Sequence record: OR544955
Origin: Escherichia phage vB_EcoP_EP32B
DNA length: 64,000 nt
Direction: 5' to 3' (one strand)
Made by a program: the position numbers and the translations under genes. Of this stretch, positions 6,395 to 59,698 are shown in pieces. The notes beneath the pieces are model-generated. The model was not told the DNA's origin. It made no database searches and worked only from the letters and a program-made list of their open reading frames with translations. Numbering within the stretch: position 1 is the first letter of the stretch; the number at the start of each line of letters is the position of its first letter.

Positions 6395-6556
6395 ATGGGT
6401 AAAACGTATCGTCGTAAAGATTTGAAAGTTCGCGATTATGACTATTTTGGTAAACGTAAAGCTCCTGACGGTGTTAGCCACAAAGACATGGTTGAAAACA
6501 TATTCCGCTCTGATAAATGGAAGCGTATGAAAGGCGTTGATTCTGAAGTCAAATGA
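6395..6556 (+). CDS. hypothetical protein
   Basis: ATG preceded by GAGGTACTT. Confidence 0.4.
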   Translation: MGKTYRRKDLKVRDYDYFGKRKAPDGVSHKDMVENIFRSDKWKRMKGVDSEVK

Positions 6557-6693
6557 AATGAATCGACAACTCCGCAAAGAAGTTCGTAAGTTGAAAAAAG
6601 ATGTTTACAGTAAAGAAGAGTATGATTATAATACTTCTCATACTGAAGCCAAACGTAAAGCTAACGAATGTTATCGTTACAGTTGAGGAAATT

Positions 6694-11109: not shown

Positions 11110-11317
11110 TTATGAAATCCATCGTCATGAATTTAGTATTGGTGACGGTTATATTGGTATAGTTTTATGAGGAGACAACTCCTCGTTTCTTTGGAACCAT
11201 GTATGTTACTTGTGAGTACGCACCAGGTGTTGTTATGTATGCAGAACTAGATGAATATTTTGCTGATAGAGATGACATGTTAAAATATGTAGAGGACTTC
11301 ATTCGAAGAGAATACAT

Positions 11318-16374: not shown

Positions 16375-19059
16375 ATGAAAGAATTTTACTTAACGGTTGA
16401 ACAGATTGGTGATTCAATTTTTGAACGTTACATCGATTCTAATGGCCGTGAACGTACTCGTGAAGTAGAATATAAACCATCACTGTTTGCTCATTGTCCA
16501 GAAAGTCAGGCTACGAAATATTTCGATATCTACGGTAAGCCGTGTACTCGTAAGTTGTTCGCTAATATGCGTGATGCCTCCCAATGGATTAAACGTATGG
16601 AAGATATCGGACTTGAAGCACTTGGCATGGACGATTTCAAATTGGCGTATTTGTCTGACACTTATAACTATGAAATCAAATACGACCATACAAAAATTCG
16701 TGTGGCTAACTTCGACATCGAAGTAACATCTCCGGACGGGTTCCCTGAGCCGTCACAAGCAAAACATCCGATTGATGCTATCACCCATTATGACTCAATT
16801 GACGACAGGTTCTACGTATTTGATCTATTGAATTCTCCATATGGTAATGTAGAAGAATGGTCTATCGAAATTGCAGCTAAGCTTCAAGAACAAGGTGGTG
16901 ATGAAGTTCCATCCGAAATTATCGATAAAATCATTTATATGCCGTTCGATAACGAAAAAGAATTGTTGATGGAATATCTCAACTTCTGGCAACAGAAAAC
17001 TCCTGTCATTTTGACTGGATGGAACGTTGAGTCATTTGATATTCCATATGTGTATAACCGAATCAAGAATATTTTTGGCGAATCTACTGCGAAACGTTTA
17101 TCACCACATCGTAAAACTCGTGTTAAAGTTATCGAAAACATGTATGGTTCTCGTGAAATCATTACATTGTTCGGTATCTCTGTTCTTGATTATATTGACC
17201 TTTACAAAAAATTCTCTTTTACCAATCAACCGTCGTATTCTCTGGATTACATTTCAGAATTTGAATTGAACGTTGGTAAACTGAAATACGACGGTCCTAT
17301 TTCTAAACTTCGTTATAACATCATCGACGTATATCGTGTATTGCAAATTGATGCTAAACGCCAGTTCATTAACTTGAGTTTGGACATGGGTTATTATGCT
17401 AAGATACAGATTCAATCTGTGTTTAGCCCAATTAAAACATGGGATGCTATTATTTTTAATAGCCTTAAAGAACAAAACAAGGTGATTCCACAAGGTCGTT
17501 CGCATCCAGTTCAACCTTACCCGGGTGCTTTTGTTAAGGAACCTATTCCAAATCGATACAAATATGTAATGAGTTTCGACCTTACATCTCTGTATCCAAG
17601 TATTATTCGCCAAGTGAATATTAGCCCGGAAACAATAGCAGGAACGTTTAAAGTAGCTCCACTGCATGATTATATTAACGCAATCGCTGAACGTCCTTCA
17701 GATGTGTACAGTTGCTCTCCTAACGGCATGATGTATTATAAAGACCGTGACGGTGTTGTTCCAACTGAAATCACTAAGGTCTTTAATCAACGTAAAGAAC
17801 ATAAAGGTTATATGCTTGCAGCTCAACGTAATGGTGAAATAATTAAAGAGGCATTGCATAATCCTAATCTTTCTGTTGACGAACCATTAGATGTTGATTA
17901 TCGTTTCGACTTCAGCGATGAGATTAAAGAAAAGATTAAAAAGTTGTCTGCTAAATCTCTTAATGAAATGTTGTTTAGAGCTCAACGTACTGAAGTTGCA
18001 GGTATGACTGCACAGATTAACCGTAAATTGCTTATCAACTCACTTTATGGTGCACTTGGAAACGTTTGGTTCCGTTATTATGATTTGCGTAATGCTACTG
18101 CAATCACAACATTCGGACAAATGGCTTTACAGTGGATTGAACGTAAAGTTAATGAATATCTGAATGAAGTTTGCGGTACAGAAGGTGAAGCTTTCGTTCT
18201 TTATGGTGATACAGACTCTATTTACGTATCTGCTGATAAAATTATCGATAAGGTTGGTGAATCTAAATTCCGTGATACCAACCATTGGGTAGACTTCTTA
18301 GATAAGTTCGCTCGTGAACGTATGGAACCTGCTATTGATAGAGGTTTCCGTGAAATGTGCGAATACATGAATAATAAGCAACATTTGATGTTCATGGACC
18401 GAGAAGCTATCGCTGGTCCTCCGCTCGGTTCTAAAGGTATTGGTGGATTTTGGACTGGTAAGAAACGTTATGCATTAAACGTGTGGGATATGGAAGGTAC
18501 TCGTTACGCTGAGCCTAAACTCAAAATCATGGGTCTAGAGACTCAGAAATCTTCGACACCTAAAGCAGTACAGAAAGCTCTTAAAGAATGTATTCGTCGT
18601 ATGCTTCAAGAAGGTGAAGAATCATTACAAGAATATTTTAAAGAGTTTGAAAAAGAATTCCGTCAATTGAATTATATTAGCATCGCGTCGGTATCTTCTG
18701 CGAATAACATTGCTAAATATGATGTCGGTGGATTCCCTGGCCCCAAATGTCCGTTCCATATTCGTGGAATTCTGACATATAACCGAGCTATCAAAGGTAA
18801 TATCGATGCACCGCAAGTTGTAGAAGGTGAAAAAGTATATGTTCTGCCTTTACGTGAAGGAAACCCATTCGGTGATAAATGTATCGCATGGCCTTCTGGT
18901 ACGGAAATCACTGATTTAATCAAAGATGATGTACTTCATTGGATGGACTACACGGTTCTCCTTGAGAAGACATTTATTAAACCACTTGAAGGATTCACAT
19001 CAGCAGCTAAACTCGATTACGAGAAGAAAGCATCTCTGTTCGATATGTTTGATTTTTGA
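16375..19059 (+). CDS. 43: DNA polymerase gp43 (family B, RB69-type numbering)
   Basis: 894 aa; Exo I FDIE (D114/E116), D222, YGDTDS, KILINSLYG; strong match to recalled RB69 gp43. Confidence 0.97.
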   Translation: MKEFYLTVEQIGDSIFERYIDSNGRERTREVEYKPSLFAHCPESQATKYFDIYGKPCTRKLFANMRDASQWIKRMEDIGLEALGMDDFKLAYLSDTYNYEIKYDHTKIRVANFDIEVTSPDGFPEPSQAKHPIDAITHYDSIDDRFYVFDLLNSPYGNVEEWSIEIAAKLQEQGGDEVPSEIIDKIIYMPFDNEKELLMEYLNFWQQKTPVILTGWNVESFDIPYVYNRIKNIFGESTAKRLSPHRKTRVKVIENMYGSREIITLFGISVLDYIDLYKKFSFTNQPSYSLDYISEFELNVGKLKYDGPISKLRYNIIDVYRVLQIDAKRQFINLSLDMGYYAKIQIQSVFSPIKTWDAIIFNSLKEQNKVIPQGRSHPVQPYPGAFVKEPIPNRYKYVMSFDLTSLYPSIIRQVNISPETIAGTFKVAPLHDYINAIAERPSDVYSCSPNGMMYYKDRDGVVPTEITKVFNQRKEHKGYMLAAQRNGEIIKEALHNPNLSVDEPLDVDYRFDFSDEIKEKIKKLSAKSLNEMLFRAQRTEVAGMTAQINRKLLINSLYGALGNVWFRYYDLRNATAITTFGQMALQWIERKVNEYLNEVCGTEGEAFVLYGDTDSIYVSADKIIDKVGESKFRDTNHWVDFLDKFARERMEPAIDRGFREMCEYMNNKQHLMFMDREAIAGPPLGSKGIGGFWTGKKRYALNVWDMEGTRYAEPKLKIMGLETQKSSTPKAVQKALKECIRRMLQEGEESLQEYFKEFEKEFRQLNYISIASVSSANNIAKYDVGGFPGPKCPFHIRGILTYNRAIKGNIDAPQVVEGEKVYVLPLREGNPFGDKCIAWPSGTEITDLIKDDVLHWMDYTVLLEKTFIKPLEGFTSAAKLDYEKKASLFDMFDF

Positions 19060-32007: not shown

Positions 32008-33030
32008 ATGGCTGAATGGATAGATAATGAATTTGCTTATCGTGCGTTTTCTCACCTACCTCGTTTTAGACAAATCAATAATTCAAGTACATTTAAATTA
32101 ACATTTCGATGTCCAGTTTGTGGCGACTCCCAGACAGATGCAATGAAAGCTCGCGGATGGTATTATGGCGGTACTCCTGGTAATGTACATTGCTATAACT
32201 GTCAATACCACAATACAATTTCAGGATACTTAAAAGAGTATGATGAAGAGCTTTATCGCGAATATCTAATGGAAGTTCGTAAAGAAAAAGCTAGAATGGA
32301 ACCAAAGATTGAAAAGGTTCCTGAACATAAACCAGAACCGGAGAAAAAGACTATAAATTCTTTGCCGTCTTGTTCTCGTCTAGACAAGTTGCCTGAAGAG
32401 CATCCTATTGTGAAATATGTTAAGTCTCGGTGTATTCCTAAAGAATCGTGGAATAGATTATGGTTCACATTAGAATGGCCTAAATTGGTCAACAAGATTC
32501 AACCTGGTACGTATAAGAAAGAGATTCCCGAGCCACGTTTAGTGATTCCTATTTTTAATAAAGACGGGAAGGCCGAGTCATTCCAAGGACGTGCACTTCG
32601 TAAAGATGCTCCTCAGAAATATATCACTATTAAAGCGTTTGAGTCTGCAACAAAAATTTATGGCGTTGAACGTGTTAAGGAAGGAGACGTCTGGGTAATG
32701 GAAGGCCCTATTGATAGTTTATTCATACCCAATGCAATCGCTATTACAGGCGGCTCGATAGATTTAGATGTGGTACCATTTAAAGAACGACGGGTATGGG
32801 TAATGGATAATGAACCTAGGCATCCGGATACTATAGCTCGCATGAAGCGATTAGTTGATGCAGGCGAACGTGTCATGTTCTGGGATAGAGCTCCATGGAG
32901 TTCAAAGGATGTGAATGATATGGTAATGAAAGAAAATGCAACACCACAAGAAATTTTAGAATATATGAAACAGAATATTTCAAGTGGGTTGCATGCTAAA
33001 ATGAGATTATCTCGTTATTCGAAGATTTAA
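32008..33030 (+). CDS. 61: DNA primase gp61
   Basis: 340 aa, zinc ribbon CPVCGDS..CYNC, TOPRIM; recalled T4 gp61 match. Confidence 0.95.
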   Translation: MAEWIDNEFAYRAFSHLPRFRQINNSSTFKLTFRCPVCGDSQTDAMKARGWYYGGTPGNVHCYNCQYHNTISGYLKEYDEELYREYLMEVRKEKARMEPKIEKVPEHKPEPEKKTINSLPSCSRLDKLPEEHPIVKYVKSRCIPKESWNRLWFTLEWPKLVNKIQPGTYKKEIPEPRLVIPIFNKDGKAESFQGRALRKDAPQKYITIKAFESATKIYGVERVKEGDVWVMEGPIDSLFIPNAIAITGGSIDLDVVPFKERRVWVMDNEPRHPDTIARMKRLVDAGERVMFWDRAPWSSKDVNDMVMKENATPQEILEYMKQNISSGLHAKMRLSRYSKI

Positions 33031-33224
33031 ACAAGCCCTATAATAGCAAAGGCCAAATCAACTACAGTATCCAATGGAACAGAAGGAACTATAATACCAT
33101 GGGCAACTAACAATGGTGCAATCCCGAAGTTCCATGAAATAATGCCACCTACAACTATTGCAGCGATAGCATTTTTCTTTTTATTGCCTTTAATAGCGTT
33201 GATTAACGATGGAAGTTTAAACAT
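33027..33224 (-). CDS. small membrane protein on opposite strand
   Basis: 65 aa, RBS TAAGGAG on - strand; late-promoter-like AATAAATA upstream. Confidence 0.45.
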   Translation of the reverse strand: MFKLPSLINAIKGNKKKNAIAAIVVGGIISWNFGIAPLLVAHGIIVPSVPLDTVVDLAFAIIGLV

Positions 33225-33313: not shown

Positions 33314-33628
33314 ATGGCGCACTTTAATGAATGTTCACAACTTATTTCTGGTGTTGATAAAGCAGAAGAAGCTTATTTTAATGCTCTGATTCACGAAGAT
33401 AAAGACCCACTTCAGGTAATGCTTGATATGCAGAAATCTTTACAGGTTCGTCTGGCAAATGACAAGCCTGAACATAACAAACATCCTGATGAATTGGCTA
33501 CTGCCGGTGATGTTGTTGATTGGCTGCGTAATCAGAAAGATTATATTGATGATGAATTCCGTGAACTGTTGACTTCACTTGGTGGTATGATTATAAATAC
33601 ACCTGTAATTAAACAACAAAGGAGTTAA
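33314..33628 (+). CDS. MazG-like all-alpha NTP pyrophosphatase (gene 56 dCTPase-like), possibly short
   Basis: 104 aa; DDEFRELL motif; position after 61. Confidence 0.45.
   Translation: MAHFNECSQLISGVDKAEEAYFNALIHEDKDPLQVMLDMQKSLQVRLANDKPEHNKHPDELATAGDVVDWLRNQKDYIDDEFRELLTSLGGMIINTPVIKQQRS
33592..33599 (+). promoter_or_regulatory. late promoter TATAAATA for soc
   Basis: exact TATAAATA about 32 nt upstream of soc ATG. Confidence 0.7.
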
Positions 33629-33630
33629 TT

Positions 33631-33774
33631 ATGGGTGGTTATGTAAACATCAAAACCTTTACGCATCCTGCTGGTGAAGGCAAAGAAGTTAAAGGTATGG
33701 AAGTTTCTGTACCGTTTGAGATTTATTCAAACGAACATCGGATTGCTGATTCTCATTACCAAGTAAGTGGTTAA
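33631..33774 (+). CDS. soc: small outer capsid protein Soc, short form (47 aa)
   Basis: MGGYVNIKTF..EVSVPFEIYSNEHRIADSHYQ resembles recalled T4/RB69 Soc N-terminal half. Confidence 0.6.
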   Translation: MGGYVNIKTFTHPAGEGKEVKGMEVSVPFEIYSNEHRIADSHYQVSG

Positions 33775-33782
33775 ATAATTTA

Positions 33783-33808
33783 AGGAATCCTTCGGGATTC
33801 CTTTTTTT
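33783..33808 (+). terminator. UUCG-tetraloop hairpin plus T7 run
   Basis: AGGAATCC TTCG GGATTCC TTTTTTT. Confidence 0.75.
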
Positions 33809-33817
33809 GTTTCTACA

Positions 33818-35328: not shown

Positions 35329-35354
35329 GGCTTATCTTTAAATGGAGGTCTATC

Positions 35355-35936
35355 ATGACATGTCAATCTGAACTTCAAGAACGCGAATACCTAACAAATC
35401 TGATTGATAGCAAATTCACCCGCCAAGAACAAAACATTCTCTGGGCTTGCACCGATTCTAAGGAAGACCCGGATTTCCACTATGAATTAGACCATCTTGT
35501 TCGTAAGCATATGACTTCTACAGTACCGGTAGAGCTCTACCGTGGTGTAACTCCAGAAGAAGTAGAACGTCTTTCCCTTCTTTCTGTTGGATGCCATTGG
35601 TCTCCTGGACGAGTAACATCGTTCACAACTGATTTCAGTACAGCTCGTCAATTCTCCGGGAGATGGGAATATCAGACGTACACTATTCTTAGTCTCAGGA
35701 ATGCTCCATTCATTTTTGATTACTACCAAAACATGGTTAACATTGTACTCGCCGGAAAGAACCCTAAGCATGTTATGGAAGAAACGCGTGTTGACGTCCT
35801 AGATATGATTGAATCTGAACAAGAGTACATGGTCTCAGGTATCTCTAGATTTGAGATTGTGGAAATTGAAGACTTAGAATATGACCCTTTATCTCGATTA
35901 TACAAAATCATTCATTTGAAAATGTTGAATTTTTAG
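35355..35936 (+). CDS. ADP-ribosyltransferase, ModA/ModB family
   Basis: R-S-E motifs: ELYRG, SFTTD, ESEQEY; 193 aa. Confidence 0.6.
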   Translation: MTCQSELQEREYLTNLIDSKFTRQEQNILWACTDSKEDPDFHYELDHLVRKHMTSTVPVELYRGVTPEEVERLSLLSVGCHWSPGRVTSFTTDFSTARQFSGRWEYQTYTILSLRNAPFIFDYYQNMVNIVLAGKNPKHVMEETRVDVLDMIESEQEYMVSGISRFEIVEIEDLEYDPLSRLYKIIHLKMLNF

Positions 35937-36046
35937 TGTACAAACTCTTCCGATGATGATACTATACCTCTATCAACCACAGGAGAAACCTAAATGTTTA
36001 TGCCGTATAACGAGTGTGAAATTGAAGAAATGGTTCGTCGTGCTCA

Positions 36047-36505
36047 ATGCCCGGATTATCAAGATTAAGTGCAATTGTTCGTAGAAATTGGTCGTCTTCT
36101 GTTCCTGAGACAATGTATCGTGGAATCTCTAAGAAAACTATGGCCACACTCGATGATAAAGGTATTGGTAGTATTATTAAATTTGACAGAGTAATGAGCT
36201 TCAGCCCAGTGTTCGGTGTAGCACGTAACTTTGCTTCGTATAATTTTTACGGAACATTTAATATGTTCTGCATCAAAGATGCACCATTTGCTTTCAACTT
36301 CCGTGAACATATGCTTAACATGATTCTGGCTGCGCCATCTTGTGAGTTCAATGGAGCTTTCCCTGAAGCGACAAGACGGTCTAATGCTAGACTTATATCT
36401 GACGAATGTGAATTTATGCTCCCTATAGGGACTACACTGCGTGTAGATTCTATTATTCAAGATGGAAGTTATACAATCTGGAATCTGTCTATTGTCAGTT
36501 ACTGA
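36047..36505 (+). CDS. ADP-ribosyltransferase paralog; N-terminus apparently frameshifted (RBS and ATG at about 35994 in another frame)
   Basis: MYRG, SFSPV, ECEFML motifs; upstream 24-codon ORF with strong RBS ends at 36069. Confidence 0.55.
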   Translation: MPGLSRLSAIVRRNWSSSVPETMYRGISKKTMATLDDKGIGSIIKFDRVMSFSPVFGVARNFASYNFYGTFNMFCIKDAPFAFNFREHMLNMILAAPSCEFNGAFPEATRRSNARLISDECEFMLPIGTTLRVDSIIQDGSYTIWNLSIVSY

Positions 36506-54535: not shown

Positions 54536-54623
54536 AATCATTTAAAGAACGTTTAGAAATGAAGTTCCTGAAATCTGTTGGCAAACTCTGGTTATTCCTG
54601 GAGTTCGTCATTACTCTAAAGAT

Positions 54624-56823: not shown

Positions 56824-57375
56824 TTACTTAAAGATATTTATAATCGCTTTGATAATAGATTTGTTTTCAAGGTCAGGGAATTTAGGGAATTCGCCGCCAA
56901 GATGTTCATGTTTTTCTAAAAGGGCAAAGAATTTTTTGAGCTCTTTAAATTTTCGTTTTTCTTCTCTATTAGCAACCTCTGCGTCAATAAGAGAACTTAA
57001 AACACTGAATAATTTATAGAGTTCATGAATTTTCTTATCACGTTGAACTACACGTTTATATGCTTCATCTTCCTTCCACCCGTCGTCGGTCCAAAGGTCA
57101 AATTCACCAGGTTCTTCTGTAGTAACATTTTGAAGAGCACCTGGAGTGTCAATAACAATTTTTTGCTTATCATATGTCCATACTGTTTTTCCACGATGGT
57201 CTTCAACATATACCCATTCTTGTTCGCGTTCATCAAATACAACAGCATAGCCTTCTTTAGGGTCTAAAGGTTTTTTTGGTGTCGAATGAGCCGGAAATCC
57301 TACGCCTTTTAATGGTTTATAATTTTCTTCTTTGTAAAATTCTTTAGTGTCAAAATAATAGTGATAGAGTTTCAT
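56824..57375 (-). CDS. 38: tail fiber assembly/adhesin protein gp38 (T4 type)
   Basis: 183 aa; MKLYHYYFDTKEFYKEENYKP..FALLEKHEHLGGEFP. Confidence 0.9.
   Translation of the reverse strand: MKLYHYYFDTKEFYKEENYKPLKGVGFPAHSTPKKPLDPKEGYAVVFDEREQEWVYVEDHRGKTVWTYDKQKIVIDTPGALQNVTTEEPGEFDLWTDDGWKEDEAYKRVVQRDKKIHELYKLFSVLSSLIDAEVANREEKRKFKELKKFFALLEKHEHLGGEFPKFPDLENKSIIKAIINIFK
56835..56842 (-). promoter_or_regulatory. late promoter TATAAATA for t (inside 3-prime end of gene 38)
   Basis: + strand TATTTATA about 20 nt upstream of t start. Confidence 0.6.
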
Positions 57376-57408: not shown

Positions 57409-58992
57409 ATGCTAAACGAACGATATAGTTAAAAGCAACGTTTTTAACTGTGTTTTCTGTATTTCCTGTGGCATTTACAGTTATTGTATGTCCATGGGAA
57501 CCAATTGCAACAGTATGAGAATGAGCACCAATACCTACCGAATGGGTATGAGCGCCAATACCCACAGTATGAGCATGGTTACCCGTGGTACTTGTGGTTC
57601 CTGACCAAGAGTGTGTATGGTTACCTTCTGAAGAAGTTTTGGCTATATTCGACCCTGCAGTAGCACCGTTCACGGTTCCAGTGAATTTAGAGCACTATGG
57701 TTATGAGACTTAATACCATCTGCTTCTGTACTTAATACAGCACGCCCAGATGGTTTACCTTTAATCGTTTGCCCACGCATATCAGGCAGAGAGCCGGAAG
57801 GATACACCGCAGCTAACTTAGGATACAAGCCAGCATCAAATGTTTGACCTTCCATTATGGCATAACCTTCAGGAGGTGTATCAGTAGGCCATGGAATCGG
57901 AGCACCAATTGGGTAACTCGACACAATATCCGTCTTAAGGTTATTTATTGTGGTATTCAAGTTAGCAAAATTACCAGAACCGCCGGTGATATTACCATCA
58001 GTACCAATAATTGTCCTAATTGCATACGGTAATTAGGAGAAATGCGACTATGACTAGTTATAACAACAAGTTTATTATCATTATCAACGGTCACCATATT
58101 ACCGCCAGCACCATCATCACCTAACGTAACAGAATGGCGCATTTGAACCATACCGTTAATAGTGGTTCATTTTACCACCAGCATTGTACCCGATATGGGT
58201 TTGTCCGTCTCCAGCATTGTTATTATCAGCTTGTGTTTGAACCCTTGGTCTTCTGAACGTCCAAATATACCTTTACGAGTACTACGGAAACTGTCAGGAG
58301 TAATAGAAGCAACAGAATTCCAATTACCTACTAAATCATAAACTCCTTGCTTAATATATTTTAAGCCAGTAGCAGCATCCCCCAAAGCAATATATCTTTC
58401 TCCCATTGGAGTAGGAGAGCCGTAGTTATTGGTATTTTCGTCAGCAGTAATTGTGCCAATAGCAAGTGAACGACGTAATACCATTGCTCCATCATTACGA
58501 AGACCCATTAATTTAGTAGTAAGTATATTTCCGGTCCACCAAGAAATTTCATCATTCTTACCAGTTTGAGCTGAAGCGATTTCATGGTAAATAGTTCCGC
58601 CTGATTTAGCTCGAACTTTACGAAGATAGTTTATACCATTTTCTTCACCTGTTCCAGGATAAACATATTGAACTAATGACTGCGAATCGTATTGTCCAAA
58701 TGCTTTTGTGTCCAAAACAATGGTTTTCGTATTAACTTGCGGAGCAGAAACTATACCATTAGCGGAGTTAATATTGCCGGACGCAGAAATATTACCTGCG
58801 TTGAGTTACATTACCGTTAATATCCCCGCCCTTAGCAAAGCCTAGGCTAATAATATTACCGAGGTCATCTTTAGTAAAAAGAGTTCGATCTTTTAAGTTT
58901 ATCGCTAATTCGCCTTCGGCTAATTGTGCTGCAGTAGGATTAACTCCTGCTACTTTGCTTCTTTTAAATTGTATCTGTTTTAATGTAGCCAT
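57407..58992 (-). pseudogene. 37: distal tail fiber gene 37 (T4 type), reading frame broken into at least five segments
   Basis: N-term [13 protein letters not shown]; internal [23 protein letters not shown]; His-box C-term [22 protein letters not shown]; frame changes near 58790, 58235, 58155, 57670. Confidence 0.8.
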
Positions 58993-59690: not shown

Positions 59691-59698
59691 TATTTATA
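59691..59698 (-). promoter_or_regulatory. late promoter TATAAATA upstream of gene 36
   Basis: + strand TATTTATA, 24 nt upstream of gp36 ATG. Confidence 0.7.

Follow-up and report, generated by a model that had tools for sequence, protein, structure and literature searches.

The window analysed here, a 64-kb stretch of DNA from the record of Escherichia phage vB_EcoP_EP32B (hereafter EP32b; OR544955), belongs to a T-even phage in the genus Mosigvirus (RB69/JS98 group). The gene order around the region of interest is primase gene 61, an ORF for a small membrane protein, gene 56, soc, small early ORFs, mrh, and modB/modA, which is the standard Mosigvirus 56-soc locus. It contains the following features, with positions numbered from the first letter of the window:

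32008-33030, plus strand: primase gene 61
33027-33224, minus strand: conserved ORF for a small membrane protein (65 aa), between the primase gene and gene 56
33314-33628, plus strand: gene 56 (dCTP pyrophosphatase), an ORF of 104 aa with its ATG at 33314 and its stop at 33628, overlapping the soc promoter
Between 33590 and 33591: junction of gap 1, with 250 bp missing relative to phages mogra and EP32a, and no microhomology
33592-33599, plus strand: putative -10 element of the soc late promoter, TATAAATA, read in the sequence and found by motif scan, its function assigned from the consensus
33619-33624, plus strand: Shine-Dalgarno sequence AAGGAG, separated from the soc ATG by 6 nt, invariant in relatives
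33631-33774, plus strand: soc ORF of 47 aa (MGGYVNIKTFTHPAGEGKEVKGMEVSVPFEIYSNEHRIADSHYQVSG), in which Soc residues 1-44 are joined to residues 76-78 (VSG)
Between 33761 and 33762, ambiguous within 33758-33762: junction of gap 2, with 93 bp missing and ACCA microhomology
33782-33810, plus strand: intrinsic terminator, consisting of a hairpin (33782-33803; 9-bp stem, TTCG loop) and then a T-run, conserved in relatives

The counterpart of the 65-aa minus-strand ORF in phage Mizar is annotated with a single transmembrane domain. At least 80% of the locus (631 bp) is matched in each of 226 phage records, and in the best 40 of these 226 records the match always falls into three pieces, which span approximately 973 or 1317 bp. 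Between mogra and the window the locus is 98.6% identical, with two clean gaps of 250 bp and 93 bp.

The 47-aa ORF encodes Soc, and both its late promoter and its terminator are intact. It matches the Pfam family PF16855 with a score of 41.9 bits (cutoff 27; E = 1.4e-10), covering only positions 1-43 of the 74 in the profile, and in tblastn searches its residues 1-44/45 have 96-100% identity to Mosigvirus Soc proteins. A preliminary description of this DNA, made by reading the letters alone, had identified the ORF as the N-terminal half of Soc, and these matches bear it out. The gene lies downstream of gene 56 and has its own late promoter and terminator, as soc does elsewhere. A full-length Soc has about 77-80 aa and a conserved C-terminal half (FPS..AAY..W..N..F.P), and by this measure the ORF is incomplete, with residues 45-75 of 78 absent. 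A base-by-base alignment with mogra puts the loss at exactly 31 internal codons, in frame, where the preliminary description had estimated about 30, and reveals a 4-nt microhomology (ACCA) at 33758-33761. Past the gap, the last three residues (VSG), the soc stop codon and the terminator are all retained. The ORF ends in HYQVSG right before a hairpin and T-run, just as had been described. In a structural model of a full-length homolog (pLDDT 81), the region around residues 45-75 is predicted to comprise a strand (residues 44-48), a helix (60-69) and a second strand (73-75), and the lost part contains ten positions with conservation of 90% or more (F46, P47, S48, A52, Y53, V56, W63, N67, F71 and P73). 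Taken alone, the soc gap is biologically possible as a genuine deletion.

Going by the established T4 late-promoter consensus, we take TATAAATA to be a T4-type late promoter element; promoters of this type do not require a -35 element. As the preliminary description had noted, an exact copy is present at 33592-33599 ahead of the 47-aa ORF. It is 31 nt from the soc ATG, which would be a fitting place for a T4-type late promoter, shortly upstream of a late gene, and it is invariant in all the relatives that we aligned. The motif is depleted in the 64-kb window, with 3 copies vs 7.6 expected from shuffled sequences, and all three copies (33592 on the plus strand; 56835-56842 and 59691-59698 on the minus strand) are just upstream of late genes, namely soc, holin t and gene 36. 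A single TATAAATA is not unlikely to occur by chance, and the rarity of the motif combined with its placement at late genes is consistent with counter-selection elsewhere. The terminator has four GC pairs in its stem and TTTTTGTTT directly after the hairpin, as is typical of Rho-independent terminators; scanning 700 bp, we found three terminator-like sites vs 0.3 expected. Both elements are of known types, a T4-type late promoter and an intrinsic terminator, and neither is a new kind of element.

Gene 56 is truncated by gap 1. Codons 1-92 of the 104-aa ORF are authentic (100% identity to the 173-aa gp56 of O157 typing phage 3), and its remaining 12 codons (IINTPVIKQQRS) come from reading on into what was formerly the 56-soc spacer: the frame crosses the promoter and ribosome-binding site and reaches a TAA codon 2 nt before the soc ATG. 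From gene 56 the gap takes codons 93-173 as well as the stop codon; it also takes 5 bp of spacer and stops one base short of TATAAATA. It is 594 bp long when measured against typing phage 3, mobillu and p000y, because they have an extra 344-bp insert at that site. The preliminary description had remarked that the late promoter lies within the gene 56-like ORF, and the ORF does span TATAAATA; the reason is that the 250-bp gap joins gene 56 codon 92 to a spacer that is normally non-coding. The 104-aa protein has no Pfam match and is not a complete NTP pyrophosphohydrolase. The full 173-aa gp56 of a relative matches the domains dUTPase_2 (residues 141-173) and PRA-PH (61-156), and the truncated protein is without the dUTPase_2 region and most of the PRA-PH/MazG-like match.

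The 344-bp insert, located between gene 56 and the soc promoter, is present in about half of the close Mosigviruses and contains the ORFs soc.2 and soc.1. Its end is exactly at TTATAAATA, and it is absent from mogra and EP32a. The 56-soc intervals of two relatives have the coordinates 35880-36267 and 35351-35738.

Occurrence of the short forms in other sequences

By exact-sequence look-up we found the 47-aa Soc (WPK29096.1) and the 104-aa gp56 (WPK29095.1) in the EP32b record only. A check raised in the preliminary description, whether related phages encode the same 47-aa form, came out negative: the full 47 aa are covered by none of 974 phage records with soc, and the form is in none of the 36 Soc homolog clusters listed (of 37) in a search of 5.8 billion proteins. 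These listed clusters have lengths of 72-83 aa, save for truncated entries of 54 and 56 aa. In the protein cluster to which the 47-aa form belongs, the other Soc members among those listed are 75-82 aa long, and the 47-aa protein is listed from NCBI sources only, not from assemblies of read runs.

The junctions themselves gave the same result. Neither of them (33590/33591 and 33761/33762) occurs in the viral contig collection, the soc junction does not occur in metagenome contigs (which were scanned for this junction only), and the gene 56 junction does not occur in genome contigs (scanned for that junction only). That neither junction was found independently in the collections scanned argues against real deletions. 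There is no natural 47-aa Soc on record; the form is unique to OR544955.

Gaps in the rest of the window

We compared the window to four other phages: O157 typing phage 3 (KP869101), mobillu (MN850622), p000y (MK047718), and EP32a (OR544954), which comes from the same study as EP32b. We defined a private gap as at least 30 bp missing at a place where all four comparators have sequence. By this definition EP32b has eight private gaps in the 64 kb, besides a cluster of gaps in gene 37 and an 88-bp gap in gene 46, vs none in each of typing phage 3, mobillu and p000y, which are three independent genomes. EP32a has three private gaps of this size, plus the gene 46 gap that it has in common with the window. 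In total, about twenty gaps are found only in the EP32b record, including several of 12-27 bp. About one in three of the gaps is a multiple of 3, so there is no sign of selection for reading frame. The principal gaps are:

Approximately 1540, 5527, 19395, 33590, 33762, 36065, 54557 and 57690: the eight private gaps of the window
Between 12816 and 12817: gene 46 (recombination exonuclease subunit), 88-bp gap causing a frameshift, 520 aa vs 562 aa
Between 49976 and 49977: denB (endonuclease IV), 14-bp gap causing a frameshift
57690-58801, minus strand: gene 37 (distal long tail fibre), with five gaps that abut one another (247, 334, 722, 43 and 350 bp by comparison with typing phage 3)

Of gene 37 only ORFs of 64-182 aa are left, vs 1093 aa in typing phage 3, and between the gaps two islands (148 and 85 nt) are kept that have 100% identity to typing phage 3. 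EP32b was plaque-purified, propagated, and tested for host range on many strains (PMC11657129), yet a phage without gene 37 cannot adsorb, so at least part of the record is not the true genome. The gap in gene 46 is common to EP32a only, with an offset of 1 nt and different flanking SNPs; the 88 bp are kept in all 25 of the 25 top-listed Mosigvirus records. In EP32a, too, gene 37 is broken and gene 46 is split.

Further genes are affected. In gene 43 (DNA polymerase), a private 27-bp gap at approximately 17321-17332 removes nine codons in frame (894 vs 903 aa) from an invariant stretch. A 366-aa ORF downstream of the topoisomerase gene (45615) is split by a gap of 16 bp, and small frameshifts at 6556-6558 and 11170-11199 split two small ORFs, which have 97 and 82 aa in typing phage 3. 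A KpsF-like gene is also split, and two more genes, one ModA/B-like and one arn-like, are truncated. In the arn-like gene, a 27-nt island that is conserved between alleles (54558-54583) is flanked by 94 bp and 81 bp of missing divergent sequence. The denB gap corresponds exactly to a patch at which each of the four comparators has its own allele. Gene 42 appears to be intact, as it was not flagged in the gene comparison.

The gaps are biased toward places where the relatives differ from each other. When local divergence among relatives is ranked, the 18 missing segments average the 83rd percentile, with 14 of the 18 at or above 0.78, and at several loci the first and last polymorphic columns mark the gap edges. 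At gap 1, for example, the left edge is the first site that differs between typing-phage-3-type and mogra-type sequences, and the right edge is exactly where all the relatives become identical (TTATAAATA...). The gaps fall preferentially in patches that are mosaic or locally hypervariable, and short conserved islands escape them. A biological deletion has no reason to respect conservation between strains, and a process that fails at discordant or unmappable reads would do so. This model does not cover every gap: those of 298, 27, 24, 16 and 12 bp are in invariant DNA, with no nearby polymorphism and no flanking repeats.

We tried and rejected several more specific causes. Coverage bias related to base composition showed no consistent trend, since the GC or C content of the missing segments ranges from percentile 0.04 to 1.00. 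Replication slippage at direct repeats does not fit the junction microhomologies: most are 0-2 nt, and only those at soc and the ModA-like gene are as long as 4-5 nt. A filter that drops short de Bruijn contigs does not fit the islands of 27, 85, 148 and 172 nt that are kept between gaps. EP32a as the second haplotype in a mixture of two phages fits several loci, but at the soc gap the left flank differs within 18 nt of the edge. There is also no clear excess of 1-2-nt frameshift errors, with nine private small indels in the window vs 3-8 in the independent genomes.

Origin of the gaps

We conclude that the short soc and short gene 56 are very probably assembly or consensus dropouts of OR544955 rather than features of the living phage, a judgement made from sequence comparison. 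Both gaps belong to a record-wide private set that wrecks essential genes, and for this reason they are best read as assembly defects. The set is confined to one record or one pipeline, and a phage that carried it could not have been viable, yet EP32b was propagated. What the preliminary description reported of the locus (soc, its promoter and terminator, the in-frame loss and the short gene 56) was accurate, but the biology that it implied, a phage making half a Soc, is unsupported, because the gaps are of one set with those that destroy essential genes.

If the sequences were lost computationally, the real phage would have a normal Mosigvirus locus, comprising gene 56 (173 aa), the late promoter, soc (78 aa) and the terminator, possibly with the 344-bp soc.2/soc.1 insert after gene 56. 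The assembly or consensus step would have lost stretches of 12-720 bp and joined their flanks without Ns. The losses would have occurred mainly where reads were hard to place, in hypervariable or mosaic patches, and the source of such reads may have been a mixed lysate, low or uneven coverage, or a reference-guided step.

De novo SPAdes assembly normally breaks contigs rather than deleting internal segments. EP32b was assembled de novo with SPAdes 3.13 from Illumina 2x150 reads (PMC11657129), and there are no Ns in the window, so a dropout must assume an unreported step of joining or of N-stripping. The genome of 156,698 bp is short compared to approximately 163-170 kb in its relatives; the authors reported it to be about 12 kb shorter than relatives and to have 0 tRNAs (PMC11657129). 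The vB_EcoP name denotes a podovirus morphotype, yet the genome is of the Straboviridae myovirus type, and the genus assignments of the phages in that study disagree between its abstract and its table (PMC11657129; records OR544954-OR544956).

The best-surviving alternative, which we nevertheless consider improbable, is that both deletions are real in the isolate: a 93-bp loss from soc by illegitimate recombination mediated by the ACCA microhomology, and a 250-bp loss from gene 56. The phage would then have a capsid with no Soc or a mini-Soc and a dead dCTPase, and the late promoter would still drive a 47-aa remnant. At soc this alternative has some appeal, and the same points would count against a dropout there: the gap is in frame and has a 4-nt microhomology, as is often the case in real deletions formed by illegitimate recombination, and soc is dispensable. 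The soc gene keeps its promoter, ribosome-binding site, stop codon and terminator intact, and what was deposited is a de novo assembly. Null mutants of T4 soc are fully viable, though sensitive to alkali and heat (PMC3012670). The remnant, however, would be without both predicted strands, the helix and the ten near-invariant residues, and similar private gaps destroy genes 37 and 46 in the same record. At gene 56 the difficulty is greater. This gene is essential in T-even phages that make HMC, unless denB and alc are lost (PMC1635256). Because the dCMP hydroxymethylase gene (gene 42) appears to be intact, a real deletion in gene 56 is implausible.

The essentiality of gene 56 could be circumvented if EP32b were a natural cytosine-DNA Mosigvirus that has lost genes 56 and denB, perhaps with a weakened gene 46, in the manner of laboratory T4dC, and in which the loss in soc is unrelated. 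Gene 56 is indeed truncated, and denB and gene 46 are frameshifted, in this one genome. In T4, a denB mutation permits stable DNA synthesis in a 56 mutant, and adding an alc mutation gives plaque formers (PMC1635256). We think it highly unlikely, however, that this accounts for EP32b. The denB gap, which removes exactly a multi-allelic patch, bears the signature of a dropout; the gene 46 gap is common to EP32a, whose 56 and denB genes are intact; and the shredded gene 37 means that the record should not be taken at face value. The set of genes was moreover picked after seeing the data, and alc and denA are outside the window. A wild T4dC-like Mosigvirus without 56 and denB, with a 47-aa Soc remnant and an undecorated capsid, is accordingly hard to credit.

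Finally, a mixed lysate in which a viable helper accompanied abundant deletion-bearing genomes, with the assembler taking the deleted paths, is very improbable: the many gaps at allele-divergent patches do suggest more than one haplotype in the reads, and EP32a and EP32b come from the same study and share O157 host strains on which they plate, among them J32 (PMC11657129), but about 20 independent deletions linked on one genome would be needed, which is not known for T-even stocks, the same kind of defect in the sister record would be left unexplained, and it takes the reads to separate such a mixture from an artefact.

Implications and comparison with known systems

The many silent internal gaps in OR544955, and to a lesser extent those in OR544954, are a warning about the quality of these records. 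The proteins WPK29096.1 and WPK29095.1 and the tail-fibre fragments are already in the nr database and in protein clusters, and proteins of these records should be avoided in comparative or therapeutic-safety inference unless the phages are re-sequenced. If the short soc were real, a truncated capsid clamp and the absence of dCTPase would be seen together for the first time in a natural T-even phage, which would have a bearing on capsid stability and on the biology of DNA modification.

Among characterized proteins, the closest to the soc ORF is Soc of RB69 and other Mosigviruses (PDB 3IG9, 3IGE; PF16855). Residues 1-44 are approximately 96-100% alike, and the gene is at the same place downstream of gene 56 with the same TATAAATA, ribosome-binding site and terminator, whereas residues 45-75 are missing from the window form. 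The full-length Soc of mogra is near-identical to that of RB69. Soc of T4 (80 aa; capsid structures 5VF3 and 7VS5) has about 49% identity over the part retained in the window. This decoration protein, which T4 can dispense with, clamps gp23 hexamers; it sits between the hexamers and trimerises on expanded capsids (PMC3012670). Compared to gp56 of T4, a dCTPase/dUTPase of the all-alpha NTP pyrophosphohydrolase type, the window form is without the C-terminal 81 residues and has 12 spacer-derived residues instead.

As a whole genome, EP32b resembles laboratory T4dC (42-, 56-, denB-, alc-) in that gene 56 and denB are disrupted. It differs from T4dC in that gene 42 appears intact, and its disruptions are like the other dropouts and occur alongside a destroyed tail-fibre gene. 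The other comparison is to mis-assembled phage records. EP32b departs from these in that its gaps contain no Ns and some of them are in invariant DNA. It is like them in having private, frame-blind gaps at tail-fibre and mosaic regions, islands of sequence kept between the gaps, and a short genome, and also in that its sister EP32a, from the same pipeline, is affected too.
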